Notes under the pieces: generated by a model
Database searches by the model: none
Seen by the model: the letters and a program-made list of their open reading frames with translations, nothing else
Told to the model about the DNA's origin: nothing
DNA from: a virus
Virus record (IMG/VR): IMGVR_UViG_3300025141_000029
Coordinates: 93,734-157,733 of that record
Direction: 5' to 3' (one strand)
Length of the DNA: 64,000 nucleotides
Translations under genes and position numbers: made by a program
Shown: one piece after another, positions 1 to 52,127 of the stretch
Position numbering within the stretch: the first letter of the stretch is position 1
How the letters are laid out: every line of letters begins with the position of its first letter

Positions 1-545
1 ATTTTTATTTTATATTGTATATCACATTGTAGACGTGGTATTTTTAAATTATGACTTCCAGTTAATATTGTAATTGAGCCGGTTAAAGGAGCTGAAAAAA
101 AATTAATATCCCAAGCTGGTGTATAATTGGTTGTATATGCCATGGTTCCCAAAGGACCAAATTTTTCTAATTCATATTGCTTTTTTTCAAGTACTTCTGG
201 CCCGTATTCTTCTGTTAATTTTTGAGATCCTTCCAAGCTTACATCTTGGAAAAGATTCTCATTAAGTGTAGCAAAATCAACACCATATGTATCTGCTGTA
301 TTTTTATTAATTTTTTCTTCGGCAGAATATAGATAAACTTGTTGTTTCAGGCGTGGTGTCTCTTGTATGCGTGTTTCAATATCATTTTGTGCTTCATTTA
401 AGCCGACATATGCCGAACCATATAATATGTCATGATCATAAAAAGCATAATATATTGGATGAAATTCGCCCATCTGTAACAAACGTTTACCCAAAGGAGT
501 TATTTCAATATCTAATACTTCTTGTTTTCTATCAAAAAATTCCAT
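1..545 (-). CDS. Partial (3'-truncated by window edge) putative virion/baseplate-associated protein
   Basis: Not in ORF track; my translation from ATG at 545: MEFFDRKQEVLDIEITPLGKRLLQMGEFHPIYYAFYDHDILY...LTGSITILTGSHNLKIPRLQCDIQYKIK, open to position 1; AGGAGG upstream; follows the structural genes. Confidence 0.75.
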   Translation of the reverse strand, partial: MEFFDRKQEVLDIEITPLGKRLLQMGEFHPIYYAFYDHDILYGSAYVGLNEAQNDIETRIQETPRLKQQVYLYSAEEKINKNTADTYGVDFATLNENLFQDVSLEGSQKLTEEYGPEVLEKKQYELEKFGPLGTMAYTTNYTPAWDINFFSAPLTGSITILTGSHNLKIPRLQCDIQYKIK

Positions 546-553
546 TTATTTAA

Positions 554-559
554 CCTCCT
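554..559 (-). promoter_or_regulatory. Shine-Dalgarno site (AGGAGG) of the partial ORF starting at 545
   Basis: Plus-strand cctcct at 554-559 = AGGAGG on the minus strand, 8 nt before the ATG. Confidence 0.8.
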
Positions 560-574
560 TTGAATAGTAGTTCA

Positions 575-3500
575 TCATTCGGCAAGTCCTGTTTCTTCGG
601 GTGTAGATTCCGAGGATGGTAAATCCGGAATGTCTATCAACAGATCTGTTTCTATTTTCGCTAATTCTACCAATGAACAATAATCATAAGGCCAGTTATA
701 ACTATAAATATGATCTTTGTTTACTTTTTTAATCTTTGAATCATCGGATATATCTTCAGTAATATTCGCATAAATATTTTTTGCTCTTTGTTTAACTTTG
801 AAGACCATCCACCTTAGTTGATTTAAAGAATCTTTTATGAATTTTCGTTCGACATTTGCATCTGAAATCTTAGACCAAAACTCATTCATTAATTCACCTT
901 CAGCAACTGGTACACTCAATGTAGAGGTTTCTGGTACAACCTTCATTGATATATCCGGCATCACACCCTGCCAAATATCTGCTAATTCCTGGCGCGTAAA
1001 GTGATGTTTAAATTCAAAAGCAAACATCACAAATTGAGGCAAAGCAGTATCTTTACTATTTTCAAAGTCGTATCTAGGCGGAAAAACAAATTTTTTCATT
1101 TTTTTTCTTAAGTTTATAATAGACTCTTTATCATGAACTGGATCTTGACCGGTGCCTTCGACGGCGCCTGGTGGTATAAATTCTCCCCCAAGAGCAAAAA
1201 AGTATTTATCATCATCCGCAGAATAAACACAATCAAAATTATCAGTGATAGAATTGTTGCCTGAGTTGCCGGCAAAAAATGGTATTGCCACGATACATTC
1301 AGAAATCGATTTTTCATAATCAATTGGTAGTTGGCCAATTGGTTTTGAAAAATCAACTGCCTGGCCAGCAAAGAACATTTTTTCTACTAATGATCCTTCC
1401 GTTACTCCCCCAGCTGCACTAAATAGCGCCGATGGATCCGTGTCTCTTAGTGTAATTCGAACTCCTTCAGAGGAATAATTTGGTATATTTCCGTAACCAT
1501 TCCACATCCCACGAGCCTTTGTATCGTCTGTGTAGTGATTAAAGTTCAGAACAGGAGATTCAAATTTTGTTGAAATTACCCAACGCTCATAATTCGAAAC
1601 ATCTTCTGACTCAAACTCAGTTACCACCCCTAGGGTTTCGGATATAAGTGGATTAATTACCTTGCCAAACAGCTTCAATGAAGAAGAAAGATGCATCATA
1701 GTGCTAAGTCCGGCAGATGCGGTCTGTACATAATGACGCAAAGGCAAGTCCGAAGAGCCGGTATCATATGAAGCAGTTGGAATATTATTGAAATTATTTG
1801 AATAAGAGGCCGTCATATTATTAAAAATTGTAGCCAAAGATGGTTTCGGCGTATCATCTACTGTATTGGTATACGCCAAATCGACGGTTGCCTTGCCATA
1901 AAAATATGGTGGCGTGTATGGAGCAAATGCCGGATCTTGTCTCTCTAAACCGCCGGCAGTTGAGCCTGTAAAAAATGCAACTGCTGGTCCGTAAATCGCA
2001 CCTCTCTTATTTCTCCATCTTCTTTGGAAATTCTTACTAGTAAGATTATCCATATTTGATCCGTTGATCATTCCCTCTGTCATAACAGAGCCAGTAATCA
2101 TTTCAAGATCAATAGACATTCTATATGTAACGCCTTCTTTAAATTCAATATCTTTCATCGGCTTAGAAACAAAAGATGTCAACCTTGAATCTTTGATAAA
2201 TAAATTAACAGATTCAGCTAAAAAGTTATTCATTGCGCGTTCATATAAATCATCATTTCGATTACCGTTCCATGTAAAAAAAGTATCCGTTTCAAAATTT
2301 GAAGCTGCATAAATTTTATTTGCTATGGCTGATTTATTGACATCAAAAATCGGTAAATTTGAAAAATCATATAATGTTTCAAACGGAAGACGATAATTTG
2401 AGGCACTAACAATCCATTGTTCACCAGTAGTTATTGCGTATGGAGAAGAGCCAGTATAGGCCGGCCAATCAACTGCAATTCCAGATTTAATCGTATTGTA
2501 TAATATACCTGGTGCGAAAAATGGCTGTAAGAAAGCTGCTTGTCTAGCCACCAAAGGATCTGTATAATCTGCAATACTGGCTGTTGGCCTCGGCCTCTGG
2601 GTGCCAGAAATATGATTAGCATAGGATTGTGATAACAGGGTAGCTAGCTGTACGGTTCTCGTAACAGGATAAAAGCCATTATAGGGTAATAATTTTTTCA
2701 GACCGTAGCATGTCATTTGAATTTTCTTTATATCTGCAACATTTTTGTGATCGTCAATAACAATGTCAAAATTCTTAAGAAAATCTGAATGTGAATATTC
2801 ATCATAGAATTGTGTATTGGTGCTTGCCGAATTATTAATACCTTGAATATTAAATTTCTCTGTTGGCAGAGTTGATGTAAAATCATTATTTCGTTGTAAA
2901 ACGTACAATGGCATGTGATCAGATATATTAAACTCAGGAATTATTGAATAATCTTTTCCAATTTTGCTTAAATCAGCTGAATATTCTTCATATGAATCAT
3001 ACCATGGGTTCCTGCCCGAATCTATATTGGTTGTCCAATTTATATTGGATGATGCTGTAATATCAGTTGTATAGGATCCACCAGCCTCGGCCGTAACATA
3101 ATCTTCTGAAGTTCCATAATCAACACCATGATACTTACATGATGCTGTCAGCCACTGTAAGTCAAAATATTTTGTACTACCCGTGGTGGTCTGCTGAATA
3201 ATGACATTGGGTCCGTTAAATAATTCTCCAGCAGCCTTAGATCTCACAACAATATAACTATCAGATGGAACAGCAGCAGCATCCGCAAAAGAGCCAGTCC
3301 AGCGACCTTCAGTTGGCCAGACACTTAAAGCAGAAGCAGAAGATGGATAACTAGTGGTGTTGTTTTTTAAATTATATCCTTGGCTATTTAATGCAGTTGT
3401 ATCAGTTCTTAAACGATCGCTGATAAATTTTCTCCAAAATGATCGATGAGAAATTCTATCATAACCATTTGATCCCAATCCGGAAGTTTCAGTATAATTA

Positions 3501-6500
3501 TTTCTTGTCCTAGTTCTATTCAGAAAAGTATTTTTAGCTCGTGGCCAAACAACTTCTTTCATTTCCAAATAATTGAAACCTTTAATTGGATTAAGTGCCA
3601 TTAATTTATCAGCAAGATAAAGGTTCGCTATTGATTTATAAATTTTTGGAGCAGTAGTACGAGCAGCATATAAGTCATTATAATTATTTGAAGTAATGCT
3701 CTTAAAAATATCTTCATTAGCAAAATATGCCATACTATTGCCGTATGTAAATTTAAGATTCTTTTGACTTTCTTGAGAATCCGGATCTAATACGGTATCT
3801 TTGGCTATGAGAGACAAATGAATTGGTTTATACTTATTTGTAACAACAGTTTCGGTAAGATTTGTAATTATTCCACCGCCGAGTATGTCGGTATCTTTAA
3901 ACATTAGGGCACCGCCATTTGCTGATGACCAAGGTACTGGTACAGATGTATAATTTCTATTGGCTGTACTAAAAGTATTTGTTAATCTATGATTTCTAAC
4001 GACTGGATGACTACCACCTCGAATTTGTTTCCAAGTCGGCCAACCATATGGGCCGCGGCGGTGATTTATTAAACTATTTAAAACTTCTGTTATGGCTAAA
4101 GTTCCCAAAGATGTATTTCTATATTCTCCAGTAGAAGAGCTTAAGAAATTTGTTGCAGCATCCAGCGGGTCATAAATTAAAGTATTTAAATTATCAAAAT
4201 CAACATTAAAATTTCCGCCTTTCTTCCCGACTGCAGATATATCACTAGCAGTCACAAAAATTATATCTGCTGAAGATGTAGAATATCCAAGTGGCGTCTT
4301 GGTGGCAGATTCTGTAATCCAAGAATATTGACGCGCACTTTGTGGAATTGGATGCTGAATGAAGAAGTTATCATAATTTGAGCCAGTTATTATACTAGAA
4401 CCACTAGATTCCATACGATAAACTCTATTACGATTAACTTTATGGATAGAAGCCGTTGTTGTTAAAAAGGCATCATAACCACCGCTCGTCATATAATCAC
4501 GATGTAATGTATTTAACGGAGCATCGGTTCTTAATGTTCCGAATAACATATCTTGATAGCCAGCGGAATCCGTATGTTGAATTCCAGTCTTTGCTAAGCG
4601 AACGGTCATATTGCGGTAGTTTATACCGTTATAGACGGAGAAGGTATGTGAAGCAGGGTCGAGATAGCCTGGTGATATAGTCTCCGGAGAACCGGGCGCA
4701 GAGAAGCGGTCAGCGACAGTGACACTTTGAAGAGAAGAGCCAGTTCTAGCAAATGTATTGAAATTCAAATTTCCACTAAGATTCAAAACTTCTGGCGTTA
4801 ATTGTGTTACAGATCCAAAATTATCTTTAAGCCAACCTCTTTGTGTATCCGCTCCAACTGTTTGAACTATTTGATATTCTTTGGAATAATTTCCAAGATA
4901 TAGAGAACTCGTACTGGTTTTAATATTTTTTATAACAACTGGGCGCTTTGCTATTTCATCTAGAAAATATTTTGATTTTGGGCTGATGGCTGTGCGCTGA
5001 GATAGAGTTATGTTCGAAGGATTGATAGCTAAATTATATTCTTCAGCACGATCATTTGTTGTAAGTGGAGTAACCTTTCTTGATTTTTTACCTCCAACAT
5101 GTATCTTACTAAAGGGGCCCTGAAGCGGCTCTTGTGTTTCGGTGCCGTATACATCGCGATGATTATCATTAATTTCAAGACGAAATAAAAACAGTGGTCC
5201 GATATAACCGCTAGAAATAGAAGAAGAGTATGCTGCGAATGGAGCAACCGATCTTCCTTTCAAAAGTCTGCCGTTAACATTTGCTTGAAAATCGACTTTT
5301 CTTTTAACTTTAAGCGCTTTGTCATCATTACAATCTTTAAAAGATTCTAAATTTTGAAGAATAATACTTTCAGTTTTGTTACTTGTATCTAATTCTGTTT
5401 TTGCAAAATTTAATTTGATATTATCAATATTAAAATCTTCAGATCGATCTACAGCAAAACGATATGGTCTAGTAAGTTTTCTTAAGACATATGTTGATCC
5501 GGAAACAACAGAATTTGCGAAACGTTTAACAGTATCTCTTTCAGAATCAACATTAGAATCACCAGAGGTTATAACACTATTTGTTCTTTCAGCTCGGTCT
5601 TTCCAATATAAACAATTGTTAGATTGATCACTAGATACAGGAAAATATCCATGTTCCCAATCATATAATAATTCATTAATTGCCTTTATTTGACCAACTG
5701 GTTCAGGCTGATTTAATTCAAGAACCGGGAATTTAGTTTCAATTTTATTTCGTTCTAGAACATGACTTTCAATTACTGTATATACACGATCTGCAAAATT
5801 AGCAGTTGCCGGAACCAAAGTCGTTAACATATTTGAAATAGAACTATCGATCCACTTATAGTATCGAAGGAACTTATCTAAATCTGGTACATTATTGACC
5901 CTTCTAAAAAAGACTTCTCGAAATTTCTCCATTTGTTTATATTCTTTTCGATATCTGTTGACAGGATCTCCAACTAAATTATGAAAATCTTTGATCGTCG
6001 CAAATAAATTAAGTATTTCATCGGAAATATTTGCGTACATACTTTTCTCAAATGAAAAGAAATGTTCGGACGGCCTTGTTTCTCTGGTGAAAATTTCTCC
6101 TTCAAAATCGACAATACTGACCATCTCTGATGAATTAATTTGATCAAATGGTACCAATTTTGAAGAAGGCATATATCTTCTATCAACAACTCCCGAAGAA
6201 TCTGCTTCAAAGAAATCGCCCCGAGCGGTATGTTGTCTTTGCACAACGTTGGAAAGCTTGTAATCTGATAGACTATTCGATCCACTTGAAAAATCTGCTA
6301 CTGTAAAGCGACCACTGCTGTCACTACCTGTAACTTGTTCAAAATTCCAATCTAAGGCCAGAGAGGACATTTGAGGCATTTCACTATCGGCCGGGCCTCC
6401 AGCGTCTTTTCCTTCAAACAAATATGTATTTCTATAAGGAAAATCAGTTCCATAAGAATCGCCAAATCTAGAATGTGCCTTTATGACATCATTGCTTAAA

Positions 6501-9226
6501 TCTGTATTCCACAATCTCAAGTGGGAGATGTAAGCATCAGAATTTGCTAGTACAGATCCCGTAAAGTTTGTACGATGTGCACCACAATATATTCTTTTCG
6601 GTGTTACCAATAATCTAGTGGCGGCGCTGGCAGAAAAAGTTCCTGTTAAAGTAAATTCATTATTCACCGCATCCATGAGCATTTCAACACCATAAAATTC
6701 TACTGTGGCCAAAGAATTTTCACCCGAACCACTAACAAAATTAACTTGTGGATAATTTTTATGTTTAAGGCGAACAGCAAAATTCCATTTAGAGTTATCA
6801 TATACATCTCTAAAAGCAGATGAAGTTAACTCACCAAACGTACTACCGGTAAGCATGAAATACACTTCAGGATTATCATCAAGTGCTTGAAGTTGTTTTC
6901 GAATAGCATATACTTGGAATGAGCCAGAATCATTATCGGCCCATGTCATATCTGTAGTTGATGTGGCCGACGGCGTAGTAGAATCTGATCTAGCAGAATG
7001 CATTCCGAACAATGAAGAAGTGTAGTTCGTATATTCTTTAAAATAAGGTTCGGCGCGTGATAAATATTTTGGAAATACAACTTCACTTTCAATTGTCAAT
7101 GAAGTGTGTCTATCAATGCCGGTAGTTATATCATTGCTTCCGGAAATATAAGAAGTGGAATTAGAATTTCCAGCATCAAGGTGTCCGTATACATTAGCCT
7201 CGTTATTATTATAAAAATCAGCATATTTGGTTTTCAATGAAACCATTCTTGTATTTGTTTGGGCGCGCCAATCAGTATTAAATCCATACACATTGAGGCG
7301 TACTAATTCTTGATCAAAGCCCATAGCATGCATTAAGTTATTGAATGATTTTTCTGTACCCTTTGTTTTATAGATGTAAATTAAATTATTATATATATTT
7401 TTATAAATTTGATTTTTTACATTATATAATTTTTGTTCGAACAAACGATCATCATCGCGTGTATTCGCGTACGCAAACAAATCCACATCTGTTAAAATTT
7501 CTTCAACATCGAAGCCATATTCAACCAATAGTCTATTATTAAAAAAGTGAGGCTTTGCGCTACTGCTGGCATAATTAATATTTTTGATTGTTGGTAAAGC
7601 TTCTATCTGAAGATATAAAGTATCTAAATAGCTAGATAAAATTTGAATTAATTTATGTAGTTCGCCCGGGCCCTTGGCAAGATCATCTTCAACAATCCAA
7701 GATGGAAGACTATTAATCAAAGAATTTGAGTTACTAAAATCGTATAAATCACCTTTAATTTTTAAATCTGCTAATGTTGATTTAACCGTTGGATGAGACG
7801 AATAAATAATCGGATCTTCAAATTCTCTAGTTGCCTTACTAGATAATACAATTGCGGAGCCTGTGGAGCGGCCGGTACTAGAATCATAACCAGTCCAAAT
7901 ACCATTACTAATCCTTCCGGAATAATCTAACACTGTAGAATCTACAGAAGAAGTTTGGGTTATGCCTTCATTAAACTTATAATAAACCCCCAGTTTGGTA
8001 TTTGAGGAGTCAGTGTTCGTACCGCCATTTACCTGATCAATATAAAAACGACCGATTTCTTTAGCATTTCTAGCAGTTTTCCAAAATCTAAATTCATCAA
8101 TCGAGCCGCTAAGTTTACCCCACCCTAAGCCGCCGGCCGTATCTAAGCCGGCCCTTCTGACTTGTGATCCGATTGTTGCAACATAAGCACCGGTGACGGC
8201 AAGTATTTTTGTGTCTGGTATACTATTTTCACTAGCAATCGCACCATCAACATAAAGCTTAGTATTATTAAATGTACCACTATTTTGTGTTACCAGCGCA
8301 TAATGATGCCAGCTCCCATCAGCAATATCGCCTAATCCAGTATCAAAGCCGCCTTCACAGTTAGCAAAAGCTGTAGGACAATAAGATGCTGATGCTGCTC
8401 CAGACTGGATTAGGGTATAAATTTTGGTTGGTGACGCGCTATTAACATAAATTGAAAGCCTACCATAGTCGCCTCCGGAACCAGAATTATCTACACTTGC
8501 ACTATTCCATAAATCAAAAACATATTCAGTAGTTCCCATGGCACTACCTGTTAATTGAGCATGGTCATTTATCCACTGATCTTTCTTGAGCCAAAATTCT
8601 ACTGTATTTCCATAATAAAGATCTAATTTTAAATTAGATTCTCTAAAGCTTCCAGTATCGTATACGTTGGCCTTCGATAAACCCTTAATCGATTGTCCCG
8701 GGACTATTTCTGATTTAAAGTCTTCACGTTGGTCGGCGTTTGGGCCGCCCTGGAGGTAAATATATTCTTTATCGGTAGAATTATATACCCTGTGATATAC
8801 CGAATGAGTGCCAGTTAGCGGCGTTTGTACGGCACCAATTGTTATATAACCATTAGTTCTCGGATAAATATTCTCAAAAATATATTTGTCTATATAAGTT
8901 GAGGAAAGGTTCCATAATACTTTTTCTTTTTGAGAACCATCGTAAGGATATTGATTATAAGTCCTAATATAAGCATCTTCATAATATTTTGTTGCAGATC
9001 CAAATTTTGCAAAATTAGAAGGAATTGAAAAATCGATTTGTGGTACAAATCGATCTTCCATCTGACCATATGCTTCGAGAAAACGACCTGATTCTATATC
9101 TTTAGCAAATGACGCCGTAGTACTACTGCTTAAAATACTGTTTTTGTACATTCCGACAATAACATCAACGCCAACAGGGCCATCGAGAAATAAATCTTGT
9201 AATCCTTTTGAAAAATCTTTATCCAT
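575..9226 (-). CDS. Giant baseplate/tail structural protein (2883 aa) with LamG/concanavalin-A-like domain(s) and a gp7/P2 gpI-like wedge motif
   Basis: LamG pattern TVEFWLK...DGSWHHYAL...LYVDG...GSIDEFRFWKTAR; second similar segment KWNFAVR...ISHLRLWNTDLS; IYKTKGTEKSF resembles the conserved KGT motif of T4 gp7/P2 gpI-type wedge proteins; downstream of gp25 and gp6-like genes. Confidence 0.7.
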   Translation of the reverse strand: MDKDFSKGLQDLFLDGPVGVDVIVGMYKNSILSSSTTASFAKDIESGRFLEAYGQMEDRFVPQIDFSIPSNFAKFGSATKYYEDAYIRTYNQYPYDGSQKEKVLWNLSSTYIDKYIFENIYPRTNGYITIGAVQTPLTGTHSVYHRVYNSTDKEYIYLQGGPNADQREDFKSEIVPGQSIKGLSKANVYDTGSFRESNLKLDLYYGNTVEFWLKKDQWINDHAQLTGSAMGTTEYVFDLWNSASVDNSGSGGDYGRLSIYVNSASPTKIYTLIQSGAASASYCPTAFANCEGGFDTGLGDIADGSWHHYALVTQNSGTFNNTKLYVDGAIASENSIPDTKILAVTGAYVATIGSQVRRAGLDTAGGLGWGKLSGSIDEFRFWKTARNAKEIGRFYIDQVNGGTNTDSSNTKLGVYYKFNEGITQTSSVDSTVLDYSGRISNGIWTGYDSSTGRSTGSAIVLSSKATREFEDPIIYSSHPTVKSTLADLKIKGDLYDFSNSNSLINSLPSWIVEDDLAKGPGELHKLIQILSSYLDTLYLQIEALPTIKNINYASSSAKPHFFNNRLLVEYGFDVEEILTDVDLFAYANTRDDDRLFEQKLYNVKNQIYKNIYNNLIYIYKTKGTEKSFNNLMHAMGFDQELVRLNVYGFNTDWRAQTNTRMVSLKTKYADFYNNNEANVYGHLDAGNSNSTSYISGSNDITTGIDRHTSLTIESEVVFPKYLSRAEPYFKEYTNYTSSLFGMHSARSDSTTPSATSTTDMTWADNDSGSFQVYAIRKQLQALDDNPEVYFMLTGSTFGELTSSAFRDVYDNSKWNFAVRLKHKNYPQVNFVSGSGENSLATVEFYGVEMLMDAVNNEFTLTGTFSASAATRLLVTPKRIYCGAHRTNFTGSVLANSDAYISHLRLWNTDLSNDVIKAHSRFGDSYGTDFPYRNTYLFEGKDAGGPADSEMPQMSSLALDWNFEQVTGSDSSGRFTVADFSSGSNSLSDYKLSNVVQRQHTARGDFFEADSSGVVDRRYMPSSKLVPFDQINSSEMVSIVDFEGEIFTRETRPSEHFFSFEKSMYANISDEILNLFATIKDFHNLVGDPVNRYRKEYKQMEKFREVFFRRVNNVPDLDKFLRYYKWIDSSISNMLTTLVPATANFADRVYTVIESHVLERNKIETKFPVLELNQPEPVGQIKAINELLYDWEHGYFPVSSDQSNNCLYWKDRAERTNSVITSGDSNVDSERDTVKRFANSVVSGSTYVLRKLTRPYRFAVDRSEDFNIDNIKLNFAKTELDTSNKTESIILQNLESFKDCNDDKALKVKRKVDFQANVNGRLLKGRSVAPFAAYSSSISSGYIGPLFLFRLEINDNHRDVYGTETQEPLQGPFSKIHVGGKKSRKVTPLTTNDRAEEYNLAINPSNITLSQRTAISPKSKYFLDEIAKRPVVIKNIKTSTSSLYLGNYSKEYQIVQTVGADTQRGWLKDNFGSVTQLTPEVLNLSGNLNFNTFARTGSSLQSVTVADRFSAPGSPETISPGYLDPASHTFSVYNGINYRNMTVRLAKTGIQHTDSAGYQDMLFGTLRTDAPLNTLHRDYMTSGGYDAFLTTTASIHKVNRNRVYRMESSGSSIITGSNYDNFFIQHPIPQSARQYSWITESATKTPLGYSTSSADIIFVTASDISAVGKKGGNFNVDFDNLNTLIYDPLDAATNFLSSSTGEYRNTSLGTLAITEVLNSLINHRRGPYGWPTWKQIRGGSHPVVRNHRLTNTFSTANRNYTSVPVPWSSANGGALMFKDTDILGGGIITNLTETVVTNKYKPIHLSLIAKDTVLDPDSQESQKNLKFTYGNSMAYFANEDIFKSITSNNYNDLYAARTTAPKIYKSIANLYLADKLMALNPIKGFNYLEMKEVVWPRAKNTFLNRTRTRNNYTETSGLGSNGYDRISHRSFWRKFISDRLRTDTTALNSQGYNLKNNTTSYPSSASALSVWPTEGRWTGSFADAAAVPSDSYIVVRSKAAGELFNGPNVIIQQTTTGSTKYFDLQWLTASCKYHGVDYGTSEDYVTAEAGGSYTTDITASSNINWTTNIDSGRNPWYDSYEEYSADLSKIGKDYSIIPEFNISDHMPLYVLQRNNDFTSTLPTEKFNIQGINNSASTNTQFYDEYSHSDFLKNFDIVIDDHKNVADIKKIQMTCYGLKKLLPYNGFYPVTRTVQLATLLSQSYANHISGTQRPRPTASIADYTDPLVARQAAFLQPFFAPGILYNTIKSGIAVDWPAYTGSSPYAITTGEQWIVSASNYRLPFETLYDFSNLPIFDVNKSAIANKIYAASNFETDTFFTWNGNRNDDLYERAMNNFLAESVNLFIKDSRLTSFVSKPMKDIEFKEGVTYRMSIDLEMITGSVMTEGMINGSNMDNLTSKNFQRRWRNKRGAIYGPAVAFFTGSTAGGLERQDPAFAPYTPPYFYGKATVDLAYTNTVDDTPKPSLATIFNNMTASYSNNFNNIPTASYDTGSSDLPLRHYVQTASAGLSTMMHLSSSLKLFGKVINPLISETLGVVTEFESEDVSNYERWVISTKFESPVLNFNHYTDDTKARGMWNGYGNIPNYSSEGVRITLRDTDPSALFSAAGGVTEGSLVEKMFFAGQAVDFSKPIGQLPIDYEKSISECIVAIPFFAGNSGNNSITDNFDCVYSADDDKYFFALGGEFIPPGAVEGTGQDPVHDKESIINLRKKMKKFVFPPRYDFENSKDTALPQFVMFAFEFKHHFTRQELADIWQGVMPDISMKVVPETSTLSVPVAEGELMNEFWSKISDANVERKFIKDSLNQLRWMVFKVKQRAKNIYANITEDISDDSKIKKVNKDHIYSYNWPYDYCSLVELAKIETDLLIDIPDLPSSESTPEETGLAE

Positions 9227-9233
9227 TTAAAAA

Positions 9234-10883
9234 TTAGCTATCCTGATTTTTATCTACTCTAAAATTAAAAACTCGATTAAATTCTTTATATCCCGGCTCA
9301 TGATAATAGGCCAACTTTAAGCCGTACATATATCCTGGCTCCAATAAAGACATATCTAAATCAAAGTAGGATCCAGAAACATCATAAGATAAACGCGTAT
9401 ATGAGCCGGCCGTTCCAACAGCTTGAGGAGTTGTACTTCCGGTACCATATGGTATTATGTCAGAATCATCAAAAATACGTATAATTTTGTAATACATATC
9501 ATTAATAATAGTATTCTCAACTTTAGCAGTTGCCCTGGAATATATGGTTGGTTTCCAATCTTTAAGGCGTGTAACAACCCTAAGTCTAGTTTCTTCTGAC
9601 GTATCATAAGAGGGCTTTAGGTTTAAGATGTTAGCAACATAACTACTGGGTACATTTTGATTCGAAGCTTTCAGCGTATTTGGATTTATTGATCCTGTGT
9701 TAATTTGGGCGCCGAGTTGATTGGTGCCATCCAAATACCATACATCAAATATTTTTGTTAACGGCGTAGCGTCGGCCGTTAAAGCAAATGACGCTGAATA
9801 TATGCCCGTTGAAACATAGCCTCCGGTAACAACAGTTGGTACAGCTGTGTCGACAAAATCTGTTGTAGTTACTAAACGCATTGCCAGCCCAGAAGGTACT
9901 GTATTATTTGAAGATCCCGAAAATATTTGAACATATATTTTAGACGACGCATCTGTTAGACCTGGAATATTTTGTAAACGTCCATTAATATAGTTATAAA
10001 GATAGATTGTATTTAAATTATTTGCGGCCGAGGCCAATGAACTACTATAAAAAAGATTTCCACGATCGTCTTGTTTTGTTGAATCCCAGCGCGCCTCGAT
10101 TAGTGGCCTTTTGAAGAAAAATTCACTTGTTCGAGCAAAAAACTTTTTTGTGTAATATGAACGAGTGGCGCCAGAAACATTCTGAATTATAGAGCCATTG
10201 GCAAAGCCACCGACAGAACTTGAATAATATGCCTCTTGACTAGCCGAAAGATGTATTCCGAGTCCATAATTTGGAAAACCTCCTGCGGCAACGGTACCCT
10301 TTATCCAGCGCTCAACCGTATCGGTTATATCTAATTCTAAATTTTCTGTTCCTTTTTCAAAACTTGCTGTTACTCTTAAATCTCCATAATCATTATTAGT
10401 TGATGCCGTTAAGTACGTACCGCCAACTGTTGCCCAGGCAGTTGAAGCGCTGCGCATCATCCAGTTCGAGCCCTCATTACCCTTTGTCAAATCTTGATAA
10501 TTTTCCATATCTAATCCAAAGCCTTCTTGCCAGGATGAAGAAACTGGTACAACTGTCAAAGTCATGCTCTTAGGAACGGTTGAGGCATGCTTAGCATTAT
10601 ATAATTTCAAATAAAAACTAACATTTCCAGATATTGGAATTTCGCTATTTGTTCTATCTGTCGATATATCAGTAATTGGAAATTGTACTAATATTCTAGA
10701 TAATTCTTGAGTTTGATTAAGTCCGTCGGCCGATGAAGAATTAAATGCTTGTCCATAAATTGAAAATATCTCTAAAACATCAGAGGCGCCCATATTTGAT
10801 GCTGTGCCGCGTGTAGATAAATTTTGTTCAAACGCATTTGTTATTGTATTATCTTTGTCGGCTATATATCTTTTGATACCCAT
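9234..10883 (-). CDS. Putative virion structural protein with DNRLRE-like (CBM96/disaggregatase-related) N-terminal domain
   Basis: SRILVQF...LKLYN...SWQEG...SNW...LDITDTVERWI...NYGLGI...FFARTSE...PLIEA fits the DNRLRE-domain layout; TAATG overlap with the gp6-like gene. Confidence 0.55.
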   Translation of the reverse strand: MGIKRYIADKDNTITNAFEQNLSTRGTASNMGASDVLEIFSIYGQAFNSSSADGLNQTQELSRILVQFPITDISTDRTNSEIPISGNVSFYLKLYNAKHASTVPKSMTLTVVPVSSSWQEGFGLDMENYQDLTKGNEGSNWMMRSASTAWATVGGTYLTASTNNDYGDLRVTASFEKGTENLELDITDTVERWIKGTVAAGGFPNYGLGIHLSASQEAYYSSSVGGFANGSIIQNVSGATRSYYTKKFFARTSEFFFKRPLIEARWDSTKQDDRGNLFYSSSLASAANNLNTIYLYNYINGRLQNIPGLTDASSKIYVQIFSGSSNNTVPSGLAMRLVTTTDFVDTAVPTVVTGGYVSTGIYSASFALTADATPLTKIFDVWYLDGTNQLGAQINTGSINPNTLKASNQNVPSSYVANILNLKPSYDTSEETRLRVVTRLKDWKPTIYSRATAKVENTIINDMYYKIIRIFDDSDIIPYGTGSTTPQAVGTAGSYTRLSYDVSGSYFDLDMSLLEPGYMYGLKLAYYHEPGYKEFNRVFNFRVDKNQDS

Positions 10884-13165: not shown

Positions 13166-16100
13166 TTATTCATTTTCATTAGCCTCTTCTATGTCAGCAG
13201 CAGTTTGAGCATCAACCTCGTATGATCCCCCTGTTGAAGGATCACATGGATTTTCTGGACCTGTATTAACAGCGGTACCTCCAGTTCCCGGAACTGTAGT
13301 AGTACCGTCCGGCGTTGTGGTACCCGTCGACTCTTGTTGGTGCGCGCCTTCAACACCGGTCAAGAGATTCATAGTCATATAGGCCATGCCAGCGATTGTA
13401 ATTGGCGTGCTAAGATCACCAAAAAAGGGCATGCCGGGCGGAAATATTGGAGTTGGTCTAATTCCAGCGACGATCAATGGTAACTTATCATCGTTTAATT
13501 TATGTTCTTCTTGAATTTCAAATGCCTTTTTCATACATGGATCAACTTGAGGAAGGGCATGCCGAAATATCCATTTAGGAATAAGTTCTTTAATAAATTC
13601 ATACCAGAGTTCCCCATCTAATCCCATGGACAGTGATTGATCTAGGCGATCATTATAATTTTCATCGCCCGGGCCGCTCGACGGGTCAGCATACTCATCT
13701 CTAGGTATGGATGCAGCACCATGAGTTTTCGCAACAATTTTTTTACAACTTTTAAATAACTTATCAAAATTAAAACCTGCTCTATACGGAAAATACATTA
13801 CATGTAATAACGCAAAATTTAAAAAATCTTTATTTGGCATAGCAAACCTATTCATTAGCAAGCTCAAAGGCATATTCATTGTTTCGTGAACAAGATTTTC
13901 CGAAGTTATGCCCAAGCGAACAAGATAGGGATCGGCATCAGCCAAATTCAACAAATCAATATGATCTTTGAGGAAATCATCGTCAAAATTAATCATGCTC
14001 AAGCCAGGTAATTCTCGCTCAGCATGTGCGTCTGGTATTGGAATTACATATATCGATTTTAAATATTTCGCATGAGATTCAATATCCTCAGCAACTTCAG
14101 TAGATAAGTGTCCTTCTCCTCCATGAGCCGTTGAAAAAGTACCGTGCGCAACGGGTAACATTTCTCTAATTTCATAAGCTCGATTAGTAAAAATTCTTTC
14201 TTTATTAGAAATATCCTTTTCCATCGAAGTTGTAATTAAATTATGAATGGATCCCTCAATATCCGACGATCGTGATGTTGCTCTAAAATTTTTAGAACCT
14301 GGAGAAGTATAAGGATGGCCGTTGTCCATGGAGGGAAAAGAATCAGGATCATCGGTATTTTTTATAAAATCATTTACTGGGGCATGCGGAAGAACATAAA
14401 CTAATCTAGTACCGTATTTGATAGAAGAAAATATATCGCTCAATGATACATCTGAGCGAGAGCCTCCTGAATTTTCAAATTGAGCGAACGACGAGCTTAT
14501 GTCTCTTAATCCAAAATCAAAAGCTTTATAAGATATATATAAATCTCCTGTTTTGTTTGCATCGGACAAATCATCAGCATTAATAGATTCTAAAAATTTA
14601 TTTACCCAAGCTTGCTGTTGGCCACCGGTGCCGCCGGATATATTATCAATTTTTTCAATTGCTTCAGCTGAATTATTCATTCTTACTTTTATAAATCTTT
14701 GAAGAATTAATCCACCATTTTTTGTGGCCATACCGAGATCAGTTAATACTTCGACATCGTAGAGGTACGGGTACTGAACACCTAATTTATGAAAGCAACT
14801 TTGTTCAATCGCATTGCTGGCTTGGTTTTCTGCAAAGAAATAAGGATCAAAATTAATATTCTTAGAATCAAAGCCATGTTGGTTCGCCAGCTCTTCTTCT
14901 TGGGCTACATCAAGCCACATATTTCCTATATTCTGAAATGTAAAATTAAAGACTCCAGACGGTGGGTCCCCGCCTGGATCACCGAGCTGAAAGTCGTAGA
15001 AGCCTTCTACTTCTTTAACGTCGGTCAGGCCCGCTACACCTTTTTTGTCATGATTTCTGATGTCTTCCAAAGAAAATAATTTGGTCGGCAAATCATGAAG
15101 CCTGTTCGATGCTAAAGTTGTTAATTGGTTAGAATTCTCATCAAGAACCTTCTGACTTATAGAAGGTGCCATGGATATAATATTCTCATTTATTAAATAT
15201 TTAAGTGAAATGTTCTTTAATTTACTTTCAAGCCTGGTATATACCTCTAAAGCTGAAAATGCATCAGCATCGCCATCGACATCAAATCCGACACCTTCTG
15301 CTATTTTTACCAAAGCAACTGGATTAATAGGAGAAGCAGTGAGGAGAATTAGATCTGCTAAATTAAAACGCTTTTGTTTGAAATTTGTAAATCTTCTTTC
15401 ATCTACATTATTTGAAAAATCATAATAAAATTCATTAGATAAAAATTCAACTGTTACCTTCTCATTAATTCGTCTTTTCAAAAAATTATAAGATGTATCA
15501 TAAGCGTCTGTCATAAAACCAGGTGCGAATATATCACTACCTTCATCCATTCTGTTTACTACCATGGAGAGAAACAAATCAGAATCTAGAATTGTTGACT
15601 CTGCTGAATGGCGGGAAAAAAACATGATTCCTCGAACTATAAATTCAGAAATACATAAACGCATATAAAGTAAAACCATCGCAAACTTTATGGCCTCATT
15701 TACCGGGTCGGCGACGGCTACGGGGCCTGTTTTATAAGCGTCGCAAGCAATCTTTTTATAATATTCATCCACTAGAGCCTTGATATCATCCGGATTAAGC
15801 AAGCTTTTTCTCAAAGCACTAAAATCAAGTTCTGAATTATCACACAACATAGAATCTTGAGCCCATTGAGATTTGGGAGCAAAAAGTATTTTAGAAAAAT
15901 TATTAACATCAAAAAGACTGGAATCACTTACATTATTAAAAACTCTTTGTTGTCTCTCAAGCAACAAGTATTGATGCATACTAGCAATATTACTTTCTAA
16001 TTTGCCTCTAGTGCCGTGAACACCCACAAAATCAACCAAAGAATAAGATAATAATTTTGTAAAAGCATATTGTGGAATAGTTATTGTACCATCTCCTATA

Positions 16101-19100
16101 TATAAGCCATCCCCTTCCGCGGGTTGATTAATATTTCGAAAAGCCGGCGTCGTCAATGTTTTCATAAACTGGTGGGCCTCATTGCTTTCTAGTGTGTCAT
16201 TTACATCAAAATTTAATTCAGATACTTCTGAAATTCCTTGATCATTAATTGAGCCTTTAGTCCAGACAGTAAACTTATTATAATCCAATGTAATAGGATT
16301 GGCATGCTGTTCTGCTTCTTTTTCTAATATAAAGCTATATTTAGGAAAATGCATTTCAACTAATGTATTAGTTGTATTTTCCTGACCGGAAAAAATATTA
16401 CTATTTTGTATCTTATCTAGCTCATTGTTGTGGTTTGTCATATCCACATATTCACCTAATAAAATAGGAAGTTGATTTTCTATTTTCCAAAGGGATTCAT
16501 TGTATACAGTTACCTCCATCTCAGTCTGGGCAATTGCGTCGACGATATCGTTATAATAATATGTGTTAGCGGTCGGGGAGTTAGGATCGTATAGTTCGTG
16601 TTCTGGTGCAATAACTAGCTTCGGATTGGTCGACTCGATCCAGATCCCGCCAGTCTCGTCCGTGTCCATCCCGGCGAGTTCGGGATGCTCGTGGAAGACA
16701 TTTCTAATAAGATAAAGTGGCTCAAGCTCAGCATATTTTACTTGAACGCGCCAATGCGCAATAGAGTACTCACCGTTCTTGCCGGAGAAGGCGTCGACGA
16801 ATATATCGGAGAAGATCTGGGCGCCGACCCACTGATACTCTTCGGCTAGCTCATGTTTTTCAATGTCAACAACGTCACCTTCAAGCTGTTGCGGTGTTCC
16901 AAAAAGTTTTTCAATTTGATTTAATACACTAGCTGGATCATAATACAAAGAAGAAACATTTCTTCCTATTTTATCCATTGCTATATTCGTTGTAGAATAT
17001 AGAGTTTTAACAAATTTATCACCCTCTGAGCTTGGCTTCAGGCTAACAATACCTTTTTTTAAAGTTTCAGAAGTATTATCAGTAGTAACATTGCTGTATA
17101 ATTCTGGTACCACTTCTTTTATTATTTTATCTTGTCTTGGAAAATTTTCTGGCTGTGGCACTCCATCGCTGTCGAAAAATACAGCACTTTCATTGCCGCG
17201 GCCGTCGTCACCTACGAGTTCGCCTTGTCCATTCCACATATCCTGATAATCTCTTCCCACTTCTGGATATCGCGGGTATTCGCCACCATATGGAATAATA
17301 TTATCTTTTATAAAAATTGTTTTAATTCCCATCATTTCCGTATCAAATTGTTGAGAAACAAGATTGATAGCCAAATCAATACAATTTTCTAATGCCGCAT
17401 TAATATACGGATCATTTATTAAAGCAGATATTGGACTGCCGGGGGCGCATGGATCAGTTGGTACGAGTGATTGAAAATAATCTGAAATTGTTGGATATGA
17501 TAATATTAATTCTAATTTTTCAAGCTGGCCCTTTAAAGCCTCTTTTTCTTGAGCTAAAAGTGACTCACATTGTTCTTCAGAAAAACCTTTTTGCTTTAAA
17601 ACTTTACAATAAAAATCTTGTGAAATTGCTTTCTCACAAAGCATTGTAACTAAACTTAAGTCCTTAAGAGCGGTTTCACAAAAAGTATTATTAACATACT
17701 GTCCCAAAAGAGCAAAATATTTTGCTACATTATCAGTTGTTTGTATAAATAATCGTATAATACTAAACTGTGTTTTAGCATTGATTATTTTAAGAACAAT
17801 TTTCAATGTTTGATCCGTTGCCGCATATGATAAAAGAGAACAAATCTCAGTAGGCTTTAAAACTTGTGATAAATAATCTAACAAGAGCTTTAATTGTTCT
17901 ATTACATCCCAGGTAATGGGTACATTGGGATTTAAATTTTCTACTATGCCACCTAAATCTTGTTCAAAATTACTAGTATCAGGAAATATATCAGATAAAT
18001 CTATGGTACCAGGAAGATTGCTTCGTATACCGCTATCAGCGCTGTCTTCACCAAAAGCAAGTATCTCTTTATCTGTTAACAAAGTTATTGGACCCAGAAC
18101 TTGTTGACTTTGTCCTGGAATGAATTCAGCAGTTTGATCCAAGGCACTTGCCAGATCAAGGCCCTCACACTCAGCAAGTAATGTTTCTAATAGCGATTTA
18201 ACGACCGATATCAAAAGTTCAGTTACAAGTTCTTTTAACATTTGTTCTATTGCTTCGTCGGTGGGGGCAAGAGGATCATCAGAATATTCTTGACCGACGA
18301 GGCCAAATGCTGGAGCGTCCATTATTTGAGATGTTACAGCATCTTGTAACTCTTCTCCTGAAGCTACCCTATTGACAAGCTCTAAAACCATATCTAGCTC
18401 AGGTAGAATTGGCAATAAGACAATATAAATTGCTTGTAATTCTTCCGGCCATTGTTCCGGATCAGTATTCTCTACCAGCCACTCTTTGATATCGTTGCTT
18501 ACTTTTTCCAAAAGATTCGGAAAAAAGTCAATAATGCCATATTCATCATATTTTTTGAGGACCTCAAGAGAAATTGATTTCCAATTTTCGGGCGTTAAAT
18601 TTGCCGCACACTGAAGGTCACCGGCGGCGCTCGCCATATGTGGTTCACGATAAAGAGTTTCATGTATACCCTCTAACATAGAGGTGGAAGTTTCAGACAT
18701 CCCAGCGGGAGGAGTAACAGCAAAGGGTTCGCTGGTGCCAGTGGGCGTCTGATCATCAACTTCAACACCATCAGGTGTTGGATTAATCATGAGATCTGAA
18801 GGCGGTGCTAAATTAGCACTCAATATAGATTTACTATCATTTTCTAATGCTACTTTTTCACACTCCTTTGCTATAGCCTCGCTAAATGCCTCATCAAGAG
18901 CATCAGCAACGTCTTGGCCAAGTTGTTCCACAATTGCGGCATGAGTATAGACGCCTGTTAAAAAGGTTACCAAATCTTCAGGAGCCATACTCTTAAGAAA
19001 GCCCATTACTGCTGCGCCAATAGCATCGATAGACGGTAATTCATTTGCTAAACATGCGGCGGCGCGCATAAGATAATCAGTCAAGTTAAGACGAAACAAA

Positions 19101-26803: not shown

Positions 26804-27520
26804 TCAAATTTCACCTTCATCCCATTTTGTTTTAAAGTCTCGATACCGGCTTCGCATTTTATTAAGATTATTAACAACTTGCTTGGTATTAAGACCTGTT
26901 ATTTCTCGAATATATAGATAAATAGCTTTTTTATTAAAAATTTCAATATCATCAACACTTTCAAAAAGAATTTTAATGGCCTCTAAAACACGACGTTCGT
27001 TATCTTTGAGATTTAAATTATCCCAATTGTTAATTTCATTTTTTAACAAAGACATAAATTCTCTTTTTTGACGTTCTTTTTCATATTGATTTTCGACAAT
27101 CAAAACTTCATGAGCCTCAATTCTGCCGGCGGCGGCCAAATCTTCATAACATATTTCTCTTCTTAGGCTTTTAGAGTTCTTCTTGACTTTATGAATGAAC
27201 CAATTTTTGGTTATAACGCTAAAATATGAAAAGGCTTTGGATTTTCGGCCGGGGTCATATTTGTCTAAAATTGTAGTGAGCCAGATTTTACAATCATCTT
27301 TTAAATAATCAATATTTGGAAGATTTGTAAATTTATATGTGTATACAATCTTGTCAACTAATTCATTAAAAGCAGGCCCTATTAAATTTATATAAAGATC
27401 AGTTCGTATTTTATTACACTCTGTTGATGCGTATTTCACAATTGCGTCTTCATGTACCTTTGTAAAATATAAATTTTTCTTTCTTTTTTTAGTTTTCTTT
27501 GGCGGGGGCACGGGTATCAT
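26804..27520 (-). CDS. Phage RNA polymerase sigma-like factor (T4 gp55-like late transcription factor)
   Basis: YFTKVHEDAIVKY...LVDKI...DDCKIWLTTILDKYDPGRKSKAFSYFSVITKNWFI matches sigma region 2 as in gp55-type factors (FDP.K...F.YF..I); C-terminal HTH-like YIREITGLNTKQVVNNL. Confidence 0.75.
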   Translation of the reverse strand: MIPVPPPKKTKKRKKNLYFTKVHEDAIVKYASTECNKIRTDLYINLIGPAFNELVDKIVYTYKFTNLPNIDYLKDDCKIWLTTILDKYDPGRKSKAFSYFSVITKNWFIHKVKKNSKSLRREICYEDLAAAGRIEAHEVLIVENQYEKERQKREFMSLLKNEINNWDNLNLKDNERRVLEAIKILFESVDDIEIFNKKAIYLYIREITGLNTKQVVNNLNKMRSRYRDFKTKWDEGEI

Positions 27521-28354: not shown

Positions 28355-29179
28355 TTATTCTCCTTTGCTTCTTTGAAAATTGTTAAATTCTATGCTTTTT
28401 TCTAGCATTTCAAATATTATATCATTTTCTTTGAGAAAGTTTAATAATTCTATAGAATCTTTAGGCAAGCATTTACCTCCATATCCAAATTTTCCATCAG
28501 GACCTGGAACCATTGTATGTTGTTCTCCGACCCATTCTGCTCTTGCAAAATGTTCGCGAAAAGAATCATAATCTATATTTTCTTTTTCACAAAGATTATA
28601 TAAATAATTACAATAACTTACTTTTAACCCATAAAAAGTATTTCTTGCTAATTTTAGTAGTTCGACCTCCGACCAATTCTGTGTTTCAAAGATTTTCACA
28701 TCATGATTTCCCCTATAATCAAAAAAGGTCTCATAAAGATTTCTTACTTTCAAGGTATTTTCTTTTTTACCAGCCAGATAAAGCTCTTGTTGATTAACAA
28801 AATCTTCCATTGCGGTTCTTTGAGATAAAAACTCTGGATTAAAAACAATATTGTTTAGACGATAAAGTTGTGATAAAGTTTCACAGGTTCCAGCTGGAAT
28901 TGTGGACTTAATAACAATTACAGAATTACTATTTTGATTTTCCTTTATAAAATCCTGGATACACGATTCTACAATTGATATATCCAGGCGCCCATCTTTT
29001 AAATCCGTGGGAACATTAATAAAAATAACATCCGCATTATAGGCATTTCTTATGTGTTTAAGGGATTTATAGTCCGAGTTGAATGGGTCATATATGTTTG
29101 TCGGGAAAACGTCTTTAAGCTGTGCTGTAGCCTTTCCTACGAACCCGTAGCCTATTATTCCAATTGTTGTTTTGTCCAC
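28355..29179 (-). CDS. ugd: UDP-glucose/GDP-mannose dehydrogenase family, short form lacking the C-terminal domain
   Basis: GIIGYGFVG, INVPT, VIKSTIPAGT, FNPEFL, ELLKLARNTF, GYGGKCLPKD (catalytic Cys). Confidence 0.85.
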   Translation of the reverse strand: MDKTTIGIIGYGFVGKATAQLKDVFPTNIYDPFNSDYKSLKHIRNAYNADVIFINVPTDLKDGRLDISIVESCIQDFIKENQNSNSVIVIKSTIPAGTCETLSQLYRLNNIVFNPEFLSQRTAMEDFVNQQELYLAGKKENTLKVRNLYETFFDYRGNHDVKIFETQNWSEVELLKLARNTFYGLKVSYCNYLYNLCEKENIDYDSFREHFARAEWVGEQHTMVPGPDGKFGYGGKCLPKDSIELLNFLKENDIIFEMLEKSIEFNNFQRSKGE

Positions 29180-30006
29180 TCTTTGTACCTCTCAAAAATA
29201 TATTCTGGTATATCAACTTTTCCATTCGCGCATAAATATAAGACATGTGTTTTTAAAGGGTTCCAGTTTTTAGTATATCTAATTTCATCTTTTTCTGTTA
29301 CTGATGGTGTAGAAAATACGACATGGGGGGCGCCACATAAACTAGCTAGATGCATGGGGCCGGATGATGGTCCAAAAACAGCTTCACAATTTCTCAATAT
29401 ATCAAATAATTCATTAAGTGGTATATTTCTTAAATCATCTGTTCCCTCAATATATCCAGATTCTTTGATGGTGCCGATACATGCTATTTTTTTATCATCT
29501 TGTGATAACAGCTTAAGCAGTTTTTTCCAATTATCGAAAGACCAGTTATCTTGTTTTCTTAATTCTCTATTTCTTATATGAAAAATATAATCATATTTTT
29601 TCTCTCCAACATTGCCATATTTTTTGTATTTTGGCTTAATGTTTAGGTGTTTAAAGCTTACTTCTTCTGAATAATGTGTATATGGCGGAAAGCCAATTCT
29701 TCTAGGGGCGAATATGGTTGTATTGCTATCTACTATATCCTTGTTTTCATAAAGAATTTTTTTAGTATAAGAAGGCATATCTAATCCGTGCATAAAAAAA
29801 GAATCAGATAATCCTCCAGGTGGACTTATATCAATAAATTTTGTTGCGAAATCTTGATATAAAGACCGCGAGGATGGTCGACATAAAACTATTATTTCAT
29901 CAAAATGATCAGCCAACGAACGAATATATGCTTGCCAAGCAAATAATTCCCATCCAAATTCGCCAACCCATGGGCCGGCTATTAATCTTTTATTTGATTT
30001 CGTCAT
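29155..30006 (-). CDS. Glycosyltransferase, GT9 (heptosyltransferase-like)
   Basis: GEFGWEL, DNWSFDNW, TDDLR...LNEL, VFGPSSGPMHLASLCGAPHVVF. Confidence 0.8.
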   Translation of the reverse strand: MTKSNKRLIAGPWVGEFGWELFAWQAYIRSLADHFDEIIVLCRPSSRSLYQDFATKFIDISPPGGLSDSFFMHGLDMPSYTKKILYENKDIVDSNTTIFAPRRIGFPPYTHYSEEVSFKHLNIKPKYKKYGNVGEKKYDYIFHIRNRELRKQDNWSFDNWKKLLKLLSQDDKKIACIGTIKESGYIEGTDDLRNIPLNELFDILRNCEAVFGPSSGPMHLASLCGAPHVVFSTPSVTEKDEIRYTKNWNPLKTHVLYLCANGKVDIPEYIFERYKEWTKQQLE

Positions 30007-30859: not shown

Positions 30860-30864
30860 TTATT

Positions 30865-33053: not shown

Positions 33054-33056
33054 ATA

Positions 33057-35902: not shown

Positions 35903-35911
35903 ATTATTGCC

Positions 35912-36709: not shown

Positions 36710-36724
36710 TTTTTTATTCTTTGT

Positions 36725-37084
36725 TTAATTCTTGTTTTTGAAGCCTTTATATTGCTTCACATTTCCGTCATCAAATTTTTTGATATATTCTTTGTTTATA
36801 TGCGCATCTAAATATTGATTTATTGCTTTTGTTAATTTAGGTCGTCTATCTTTAAAACAAAAATCTAATTTTCTTTTTAAATCAAAAACTTCTTGAGGAT
36901 CATTAGATTCTGCGCATGCGTCTTCAATCTTCCACATACGAATGTGAAGAATGATATACTTTTCAAGCATCTCTGCGAAATTATCAGACCACTCTACGCC
37001 TTTAAAATGAGGCGGCTCTTTGTCAAATCTAGACTCAATTTCTTCTAATAAAAGTTCGCTAATTTTTTCTAATCTACTGCTCAT
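36725..37084 (-). CDS. Small helical protein, DUF4254-like
   Basis: LHIRMWKIED...LKRKLD...R...IN resembles DUF4254-type proteins found beside GT9 genes. Confidence 0.5.
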   Translation of the reverse strand: MSSRLEKISELLLEEIESRFDKEPPHFKGVEWSDNFAEMLEKYIILHIRMWKIEDACAESNDPQEVFDLKRKLDFCFKDRRPKLTKAINQYLDAHINKEYIKKFDDGNVKQYKGFKNKN

Positions 37085-39795: not shown

Positions 39796-39837
39796 TTATT
39801 ATTCCTTATTTTGTTTATTATTATAAATATTTTTTTA

Positions 39838-52097: not shown

Positions 52098-52127
52098 ATT
52101 TTTCCTAACGTTACAAGTATTTATAGT

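Follow-up and report, generated by a model that had tools for sequence, protein, structure and literature searches.

Why should one short tripeptide recur throughout the tail proteins of a phage, and is it connected with the sugar-modifying genes that the same phage carries? The question arises from the final 64 kb (64,000 nucleotides, positions 93,734 to 157,733) of the 157,733-bp viral contig IMGVR_UViG_3300025141_000029 of IMG/VR (CheckV completeness 87%), hereafter the window, which comes from an uncultured marine T4-like phage and has almost every gene on the minus strand. An earlier note on this DNA had drawn attention to the motif [S/T]-[G/A/S]-S in two proteins of 2883 and 549 amino acids (aa) and had taken it for a glycosylation sequon on outer virion proteins, read by a 20-kb glycan island upstream on the same strand. 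We find that the motif is in clear excess, that it has a direction, and that it is limited to certain virion proteins of one phage clade whose members, among those checked, also carry a conserved pair of family 4 glycosyltransferases (GT4). We tentatively propose that outer tail proteins are O-glycosylated in the cytoplasm at [ST]-[G/A/S]-S, a reading drawn from sequence that we place just short of even; the interpretation given in the earlier note is partly supported.

A directional tripeptide excess in a subset of virion proteins

Motifs were counted by regular expression on translated open reading frames (ORFs), and expectations were taken from 1000 shuffles. The 2883-aa protein contains 48 copies of [ST][GAS]S against 12.2 +/- 3.5 expected (z 10.3) and the 549-aa protein 14 against 3.0 (z 6.5), which bears out the roughly 40 copies and the dozen or so that had been noticed before. 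A partial ORF at the edge of the window has 2 copies against 0.1 expected, 7 residues apart, as the LTGSITILTGSH pair. The scarcity of the motif in the large 2764-aa neighbour and in the enzymes, also remarked on earlier, is equally real: the neighbour is at background (4 vs 4.9 for [ST][GAS]S, and 3-4 vs 3.2-4.9 over the motif forms) and the island enzymes have 0-1 copies apiece.

In the 2883-aa protein the sharper form [ST][GA]S occurs 38 times against 6.8 expected, and an unbiased scan of all tripeptides places TGS (14 vs 1.5) and TAS (9 vs 1.5) at the top. The signal depends on the order of the residues, T[GA]S being found 23 times (3.0 expected), its mirror S[GA]T 5 times (3.0 expected) and T[GA]T 2 times (2.4 expected). 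The excess of [ST][GA]S outlasts shuffling inside blocks of 20, 40 or 100 residues; with blocks of 20 the expectation is 8.2 +/- 2.8, with a maximum of 21 in 1000, and an expectation conditioned on dipeptides reaches 14.9. The 38 copies make up 33 distinct 9-mers and use ordinary codons, and copies in the window are dispersed at spacings of 4-267 residues, in agreement with the previous description of scattered copies with varied codons. Since the shuffles, the direction, the variety of 9-mers and the codon usage exclude composition and repeated DNA words, the motif signal lies at the protein level. This had been suggested before, and it holds against shuffled controls genome-wide, with the excess limited to a subset of virion proteins.

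That subset extends beyond the two proteins named so far. The tail sheath has 8 copies against 2.9 expected, every one of them at aa 144-629 and none in the conserved C-terminal core; the neck protein has 4 against 1.0, a 262-aa protein 10 against 2.1, and two paired proteins of 380 and 381 aa have 8 (1.5 expected) and 5 (1.3 expected), respectively; a 203-aa protein is also in excess. No excess was seen in the gp6-like protein (0 vs 1.1-1.8), which thereby provides an internal negative control, nor in the gp25-like, tube (0 vs 0.7), portal, terminase and 2764-aa proteins, and the remaining 138 ORFs of the genome together have 31 copies against 41.4 expected. The genes on which the argument turns are the following, in window coordinates unless stated otherwise.

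575..9226, minus strand: 2883-aa protein, putative peripheral baseplate protein, with LamG/pentraxin-like jelly rolls in at least part of it (Laminin_G_3 match, structural model, homologues)
9234..10883, minus strand: 549-aa protein, next after the gp6-like gene (motif counts, 11 homologues)
3..545, minus strand: N-terminal part (181 aa) of a 353-aa ORF running past the window (genome 93217-94278)
Genome 86124-93217, just below window position 1, minus strand: 1296- and 1053-aa proteins with no PHROG, Pfam or cultured-phage match
10883..12688, minus strand: gp6-like inner baseplate wedge protein (phrog_219, phrog_6; 31% identity to the baseplate wedge protein of phage immuto)
12723..13106, minus strand: gp25-like baseplate wedge protein (PF04965, E 6e-11)
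13166..21460, minus strand: 2764-aa neighbour, upstream of the gp25-like gene, with no Pfam or PHROG match, which could be a hub, a tape measure or another component
26804..27520, minus strand: late sigma factor (gp55-like), separating the island from the baseplate module (phrog_234, E 1e-5)
28355..46436, minus strand: variable part of the glycan island (family matches)
46439..47713, minus strand: GT4-2, 424 aa, the second, GT4-like member of the conserved transferase pair, with the R-K motif and E-x7-E kept
47715..48983, minus strand: GT4-1, 422 aa, the first member of the conserved GT4 pair, candidate priming enzyme
48990..49769, minus strand: PD-(D/E)XK (Cas4-like) nuclease at the head of the island

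In the order of transcription, the nuclease is followed by GT4-1, GT4-2, about 18 kb of sugar genes, the late sigma factor and the baseplate module, so that the glycan island upstream on the same strand is as previously described. The module itself runs from the 2764-aa protein through the gp25-like, gp6-like, 549-aa and 2883-aa proteins to the start of the 353-aa ORF. The label "baseplate" is a putative one for the 549- and 2883-aa proteins, taken from synteny only, their genes lying right after the gp25-like and gp6-like genes.

One phage clade and its pair of glycosyltransferases

Judged by portal identity, the closest cultured phages are Flavobacterium phage immuto and Microcystis phage Mel-JY01 (39-42%), with Rhodothermus phage RM378 more distant (32%); no match in cultured phages was returned by megablast of window positions 1-12000 or by tblastn of the 2883-, 1296- and 1053-aa proteins. 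All three phages show the excess. The tail proteins of immuto are strongly enriched, above all a 1053-aa "tail spike" of that phage with 53 copies against 12.1 expected (35287-38448 of the sequence examined), in which the motif forms tandem [ST]-[GA]-S-[YF] arrays (TASY/SASF/TGSF) with a period of 4-9 residues. Mel-JY01 has 60 copies against 13.4 expected, with the control [ST][GA]T at 9 vs 9.0, and RM378 has a block of tail genes, each at 4-10x expectation, and 79 copies against 35 genome-wide. By BLASTP, most of the enriched proteins of RM378 and the top-enriched protein of immuto have no match in the genome studied here. As a separate observation, the arrays in the immuto "tail spike" precede YadA-head-like SHAEG repeats.

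No excess is found in the structural proteins of T4 (13 vs 21.5 over 21 proteins), in the giant Ser/Thr-rich baseplate proteins of cyanophage P-HM1 (64 vs 49.4, or 1.3x; [ST][GA]T 96 vs 64), or in Xanthomonas phage Xoo-sp13, whose 3245-aa baseplate protein has 5 copies against 4.9 expected (16 vs 12.8 with its neighbours). These comparisons identify the excess as the property of a clade, neither of one protein family nor of tail proteins in general, and the counts in T4, P-HM1 and Xoo-sp13 rule out a universal feature of myovirus tails. The siphoviruses Mae-JY09 and phiPsal1, which have a distant GT4 gene right after the capsid gene and no excess of [ST][GA]S, are uninformative in this respect. 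In Mae-JY09, a 218-aa protein of the tail region (20757-21413 of the sequence examined) has 13 copies of [ST][GA]T against 2.6 expected and none of [ST][GA]S, and this phage may use a different motif.

Metagenomic sequences extend the pattern. The 2883-aa protein has more than 1000 metagenomic homologues of about 3000 aa, and in 120 of the 120 examined [ST][GA]S stands at 2.3-6.3x expectation (median 4.0), with [ST][GA]T at 1.55x. In an alignment of 40 full-length members of the family, T[GA]S is at 5.2x and its mirror at 1.7x; the middle position must be tiny (Gly or Ala 4.1x, Ser 2.5x, all other classes at most 1x), and the third position favors Ser (4.1x) over Thr (1.5x), Asn (0.9x) and Asp (1.25x). 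The motif is typically preceded by an aliphatic residue (V/L/I) at -1 and by aromatic residues at -2 and -4, and followed by A/V/L. In the 549-aa family, most of the 14 motif sites are invariant or nearly so in 11 homologues.

The same phages share an unusual pair of enzymes. A tblastn search with the 422-aa GT4-1 returned 15 phage records only, with full-length matches in immuto, Mel-JY01 and an uncultured 484-kb phage and a match over 75% of the query in RM378, and the nearest ESM Atlas clusters are 87-100% viral, which makes this a virus-only family. In the phage studied here, in immuto and in RM378, the gene immediately after GT4-1 also encodes a GT4-like protein. The PD-(D/E)XK nuclease precedes the pair in the first two, and the RM378 gene at this position is annotated as "similar to DNA polymerase I." Of the related metagenomic contigs, 12 had sufficient length for a test, and GT4-1 was present in all 12, at 60-84% identity, compared with 39-58% for the baseplate protein. 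All motif-positive phages checked (16/16) carry the pair, GT4-1 being the gene tested in the 12 contigs, and no member of the clade without it was found. Both paralogues keep the E-x7-E motif, and at E <= 0.001 their only Pfam matches are Glycos_transf_1, Glyco_trans_1_4, GT4-conflict and Glyco_trans_1_2.

The genes that follow the pair differ from phage to phage. Here they form an 18-kb set for heptose-like, GDP-6-deoxyhexose and aminosugar synthesis and methylation, in immuto a different set of 8 kb, and in RM378, by annotation, there is no adjoining island. In related contigs, GT4-1 and the gene for the giant baseplate protein lie between about 26 and 41 kb apart; therefore, the island between these conserved flanks varies in length by about 15 kb. 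The variable enzymes of the window include a UDP-sugar dehydrogenase, GT9-like and GT1_2-like transferases, DegT aminotransferases, a GDP-mannose 4,6-dehydratase, epimerases and methyltransferases. A heptose- or octose-like nucleotide-sugar pathway at 41914-45625 comprises a transaldolase, a cupin, a class II aldolase, a PfkB kinase and an RpiB-cytidylyltransferase fusion, and no GmhA-type isomerase was seen with it. A 646-aa B12-binding radical-SAM enzyme at 33057-34997, also inside the island, is probably a sugar C-methyltransferase.

This distribution modifies two proposals of the earlier note. The motif had been thought to be read by the whole island, which the comparison does not bear out, since the excess covaries with the conserved nuclease-GT4-GT4 head and is kept in RM378, where no large island adjoins the pair. 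It had also been expected in relatives only where they carry the glycosyltransferase island; no motif-positive relative without glycosyltransferases was found, but the association is with the pair and not with the island, and it concerns a single clade.

The proteins of the island are all soluble, none having a transmembrane-like segment, and they include neither a flippase nor a polymerase nor a priming phosphoglycosyltransferase, which argues that the acceptor of the island should be cytoplasmic. In immuto, liquid chromatography with UV and mass spectrometric detection found canonical dA, dC and dT in the DNA, with dG wholly replaced by fdPreQ1, and no glycosylated base was reported (PMC10516641). 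Genes for a ThyA-type hydroxymethylase, QueC or TGT were not found in the contig studied here. For these two reasons DNA is an unlikely target of the island and proteins are its most plausible acceptor.

A candidate sequon and its alternatives

Under the reading that we tentatively favor, a hydrophobic or aliphatic residue followed by [ST]-[G/A/S]-S would be a clade-wide tag on exposed proteins of the tail, neck, sheath and outer baseplate, and one hydroxyl of the motif would be O-glycosylated in the cytoplasm of the host, while the virion protein folds or once it has folded. The conserved, virus-specific GT4 pair beside the Cas4-like nuclease would add the first sugar, and the variable soluble transferases and sugar-nucleotide enzymes encoded downstream would extend it, producing a phage-specific glycan on shared sites. 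Three parts of this reading are inferred: a modification on the motif, a sugar as that modification, and the GT4 enzymes as its readers. Stated for the clade as a whole, the proposal is that aquatic T4-like phages use a previously undescribed hydrophobic-[S/T]-[G/A/S]-S sequon, read by a virus-only GT4 pair and extended by hypervariable islands, which we regard as possible but incline to doubt.

If true, this would give phage virion glycosylation its first defined sequon, and it would widen the phenomenon from a few mycobacteriophages to abundant marine and freshwater myoviruses. It would also explain large, fast-changing glycan islands that lack export machinery, and it would supply a simple sequence rule for predicting sugar-coated virion surfaces, with a bearing on host recognition, protease resistance and the stickiness of particles in the sea. 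Three members of the clade, with Flavobacterium, Microcystis and Rhodothermus hosts, are cultured, so the idea is directly testable.

A number of our findings weigh against glycosylation. The claim that the motif marks outer virion proteins stands for a subset of tail, neck, sheath and baseplate proteins and fails elsewhere: not one [ST][GA]S occurs in the 1296- and 1053-aa proteins encoded just downstream of the 2883-aa protein (1.5 and 2.3 expected), and the capsid protein is barely enriched (4 vs 1.4). The sheath of RM378 likewise lacks enrichment. The 1296- and 1053-aa proteins may be hidden parts of the particle or recently acquired receptor-binding proteins. The GT4 proteins match generic GT4 models only (Pfam, E <= 0.001) and lack the DUF1975 of GtfA/GtfB, and their co-occurrence with the motif, perfect as it is, comes from one clade and effectively from a single evolutionary event. 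In addition, the flanks of the motif are hydrophobic or aromatic and low in charge and proline, and, as judged from the model described below, some of the sites may be partly buried.

The pattern of conservation points the same way. The 40-sequence alignment has 299 motif columns, 156 of them singletons, and the excess lies mostly in conserved or semi-conserved columns, 47 columns common to more than 3 sequences being found for T[GA]S and 12 for the mirror; singleton columns exceed control tripeptides only 1.3-1.9x per expected count. Where semi-conserved sites lose the motif, the middle Gly/Ala/Ser is kept in 60% and the third Ser in 24%, the lowest value, which fits a structural turn.

The main alternative is that the tripeptide is an unmodified structural idiom, a turn of small residues closing beta-strands in LamG-like and other all-beta tail domains, with the glycan island serving other ends such as host surface glycans or small molecules; on balance we consider it unlikely. 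It draws on the structure of the carrier. The 2883-aa protein has a Laminin_G_3 match (PF13385) at aa 256-391, and an AlphaFold model of aa 180-1010 (predicted local distance difference test score [pLDDT] of 65, with 398 residues at 70 or above), used for secondary structure only, consists of two LamG-like jelly-roll domains linked by an uncertain helical stretch. With Foldseek, the jelly rolls match PAPP-A, PTX3, laminin LG4-5 and neurexin LNS at E of about 1e-6. Of 16 modelled sites, 1 is deep in a strand, 8 are within 2 residues of a strand end and 7 are in loops, several of low confidence; the model of the 549-aa protein (pLDDT 44) is too poor for site mapping. In the model, positions at strand ends and in loops would fit exposed turns, as expected of acceptor sites, and would fit a plain turn motif equally well. 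Many sites are conserved glycine turns at the ends of beta-strands, an outcome that the earlier note itself had listed as weakening its case.

A turn idiom would likewise account for the strand-like aliphatic and aromatic context set out above, for the preferential retention of the central Gly, Ala or Ser when the motif decays, and for an enrichment that is highest in the conserved core. It would also account for the near-invariant sites that persist across 30-40% identity, for example SGS at 981 (37 of 39 sequences) and S[GA]S at 373 (33 of 39), the latter overlapping the canonical LamG "G-x-I-D-E" strand. Less easily explained by a turn is the absence of an excess from the analogous all-beta giant baseplate and fibre proteins of T4, P-HM1 and Xoo-sp13, where a general turn preference should show. 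The motif is, moreover, in excess in proteins of the clade without detectable homology and in lineage-specific insertions; relative to control tripeptides, the excess is about 3x in the conserved core and in such insertions alike. Turn geometry alone also does not readily yield a third position that strictly favors Ser over Thr, or the asymmetry with the mirror.

Clade restriction, non-homologous carriers and directionality all point to a factor acting in trans, and none of them ties the motif chemically to a sugar, so a different clade-specific reader has to be considered: the tripeptide might be phosphorylated, acylated or modified with a phosphoglycan, or be recognized by a chaperone or protease of tail assembly. 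We judge this quite improbable, given that the GT4 pair is the only set of conserved candidate enzymes found to co-occur with the motif, and that next to the tail genes we noted no conserved kinase or acyltransferase and no dedicated chaperone, although this possibility was not searched for systematically. Last, a by-product of composition, of local clustering of Ser, Thr and Gly or of a repeated DNA word, for which one could cite the Ser/Thr-rich carriers (Ser 10-15%) and the mildly raised control [ST][GA]T (1.5x), is refuted for practical purposes by the global, block and dipeptide controls, by the lack of enrichment of the mirror, by the diversity of the 9-mers and their codons and by the low value in the equally Ser/Thr-rich P-HM1.

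Comparison with known glycosylation systems

The closest known phenomenon is the O-glycosylation of mycobacteriophage virions by phage-encoded glycosyltransferases, as recounted in PMC12619734 (Freeman et al. 2023, Cell Host Microbe 31:1216). As in that account, phage transferases, of which the window encodes two GT4, GT9-like and GT1_2-like ones, would decorate structural proteins inside the host cell and yield a self-made glycan coat. The sites and the carriers differ: the source describes chemically demonstrated glycans of siphoviruses that sit on capsid and tail-tube subunits, at their C-termini, whereas the present sites, known from sequence alone, are a dispersed tripeptide on the tail, sheath, neck and baseplate of T4-like myoviruses, with capsid and tube barely or not enriched. 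Unlike those described for mycobacteriophages in that source, the transferases lie here in an island adjoining a nuclease gene.

As a working analogy, the closest system would be the GT4 enzymes GtfA/GtfB of the Gram-positive accessory Sec pathway, a conserved pair that primes O-GlcNAc on alternating serines of serine-rich-repeat adhesins and is followed by variable extension transferases (PMC6973325). The likeness lies in a conserved, adjacent GT-B pair that starts Ser/Thr O-glycosylation in the cytoplasm, in further transferases that vary between strains and lead to different glycans, and in acceptor serines that alternate with a small residue (PMC6973325); GT4-1 also has weak, family-level matches to Gtf1 (5e9t) and to SdgA/SdgB. 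Membership of this system nevertheless fails. The phage pair has no DUF1975 and no export system, neither paralogue looks like a pure chaperone in view of the E-x7-E motif that both keep, and the acceptors of GtfA/GtfB are long tandem repeats, whereas the phage copies are dispersed in folded beta-domains except in the tandem arrays of the immuto "tail spike."

The D-(S/T)-(A/I/L/V/M/T) sequon of Bacteroidota, which had been cited as a precedent, is similar in being a three-residue signal spread over many proteins, and the clade has at least one Flavobacterium among its hosts. The general O-glycosylation of Bacteroidota acts in the periplasm, whereas virions are assembled in the cytoplasm, and the clade also infects Microcystis and Rhodothermus. 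The precedent does not carry over to this phage, where D-[ST]-[AILVMT] is not enriched in the 2883-aa protein (10 vs 12.1), in the 549-aa protein (3 vs 2.5) or genome-wide (131 vs 144).

Chlorovirus PBCV-1 glycosylates its capsid protein with virus-encoded, host-independent cytoplasmic machinery at atypical sequons, the glycans being N-linked to a protein of a eukaryotic virus. Both phage GT4 proteins match the PBCV-1 GT4 protein B736L (PDB 3oy2), at family level only (E 7e-6 and 0.01). With respect to the heptosyltransferases TibC/Aah, the island has the heptose-like pathway and weak GT9-like matches (PF01075, E 2e-6; TIGR02193, E 2e-4); no solved TibC-like chain was matched, and by annotation neither immuto nor RM378 shares the heptose genes.

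Beyond the nuclease gene, window positions 50787-52868 contain a gene for a PIN-PhoH fusion (436 aa, minus strand) and then, on the opposite strand, one for a trypsin-like serine peptidase (52128-52868).

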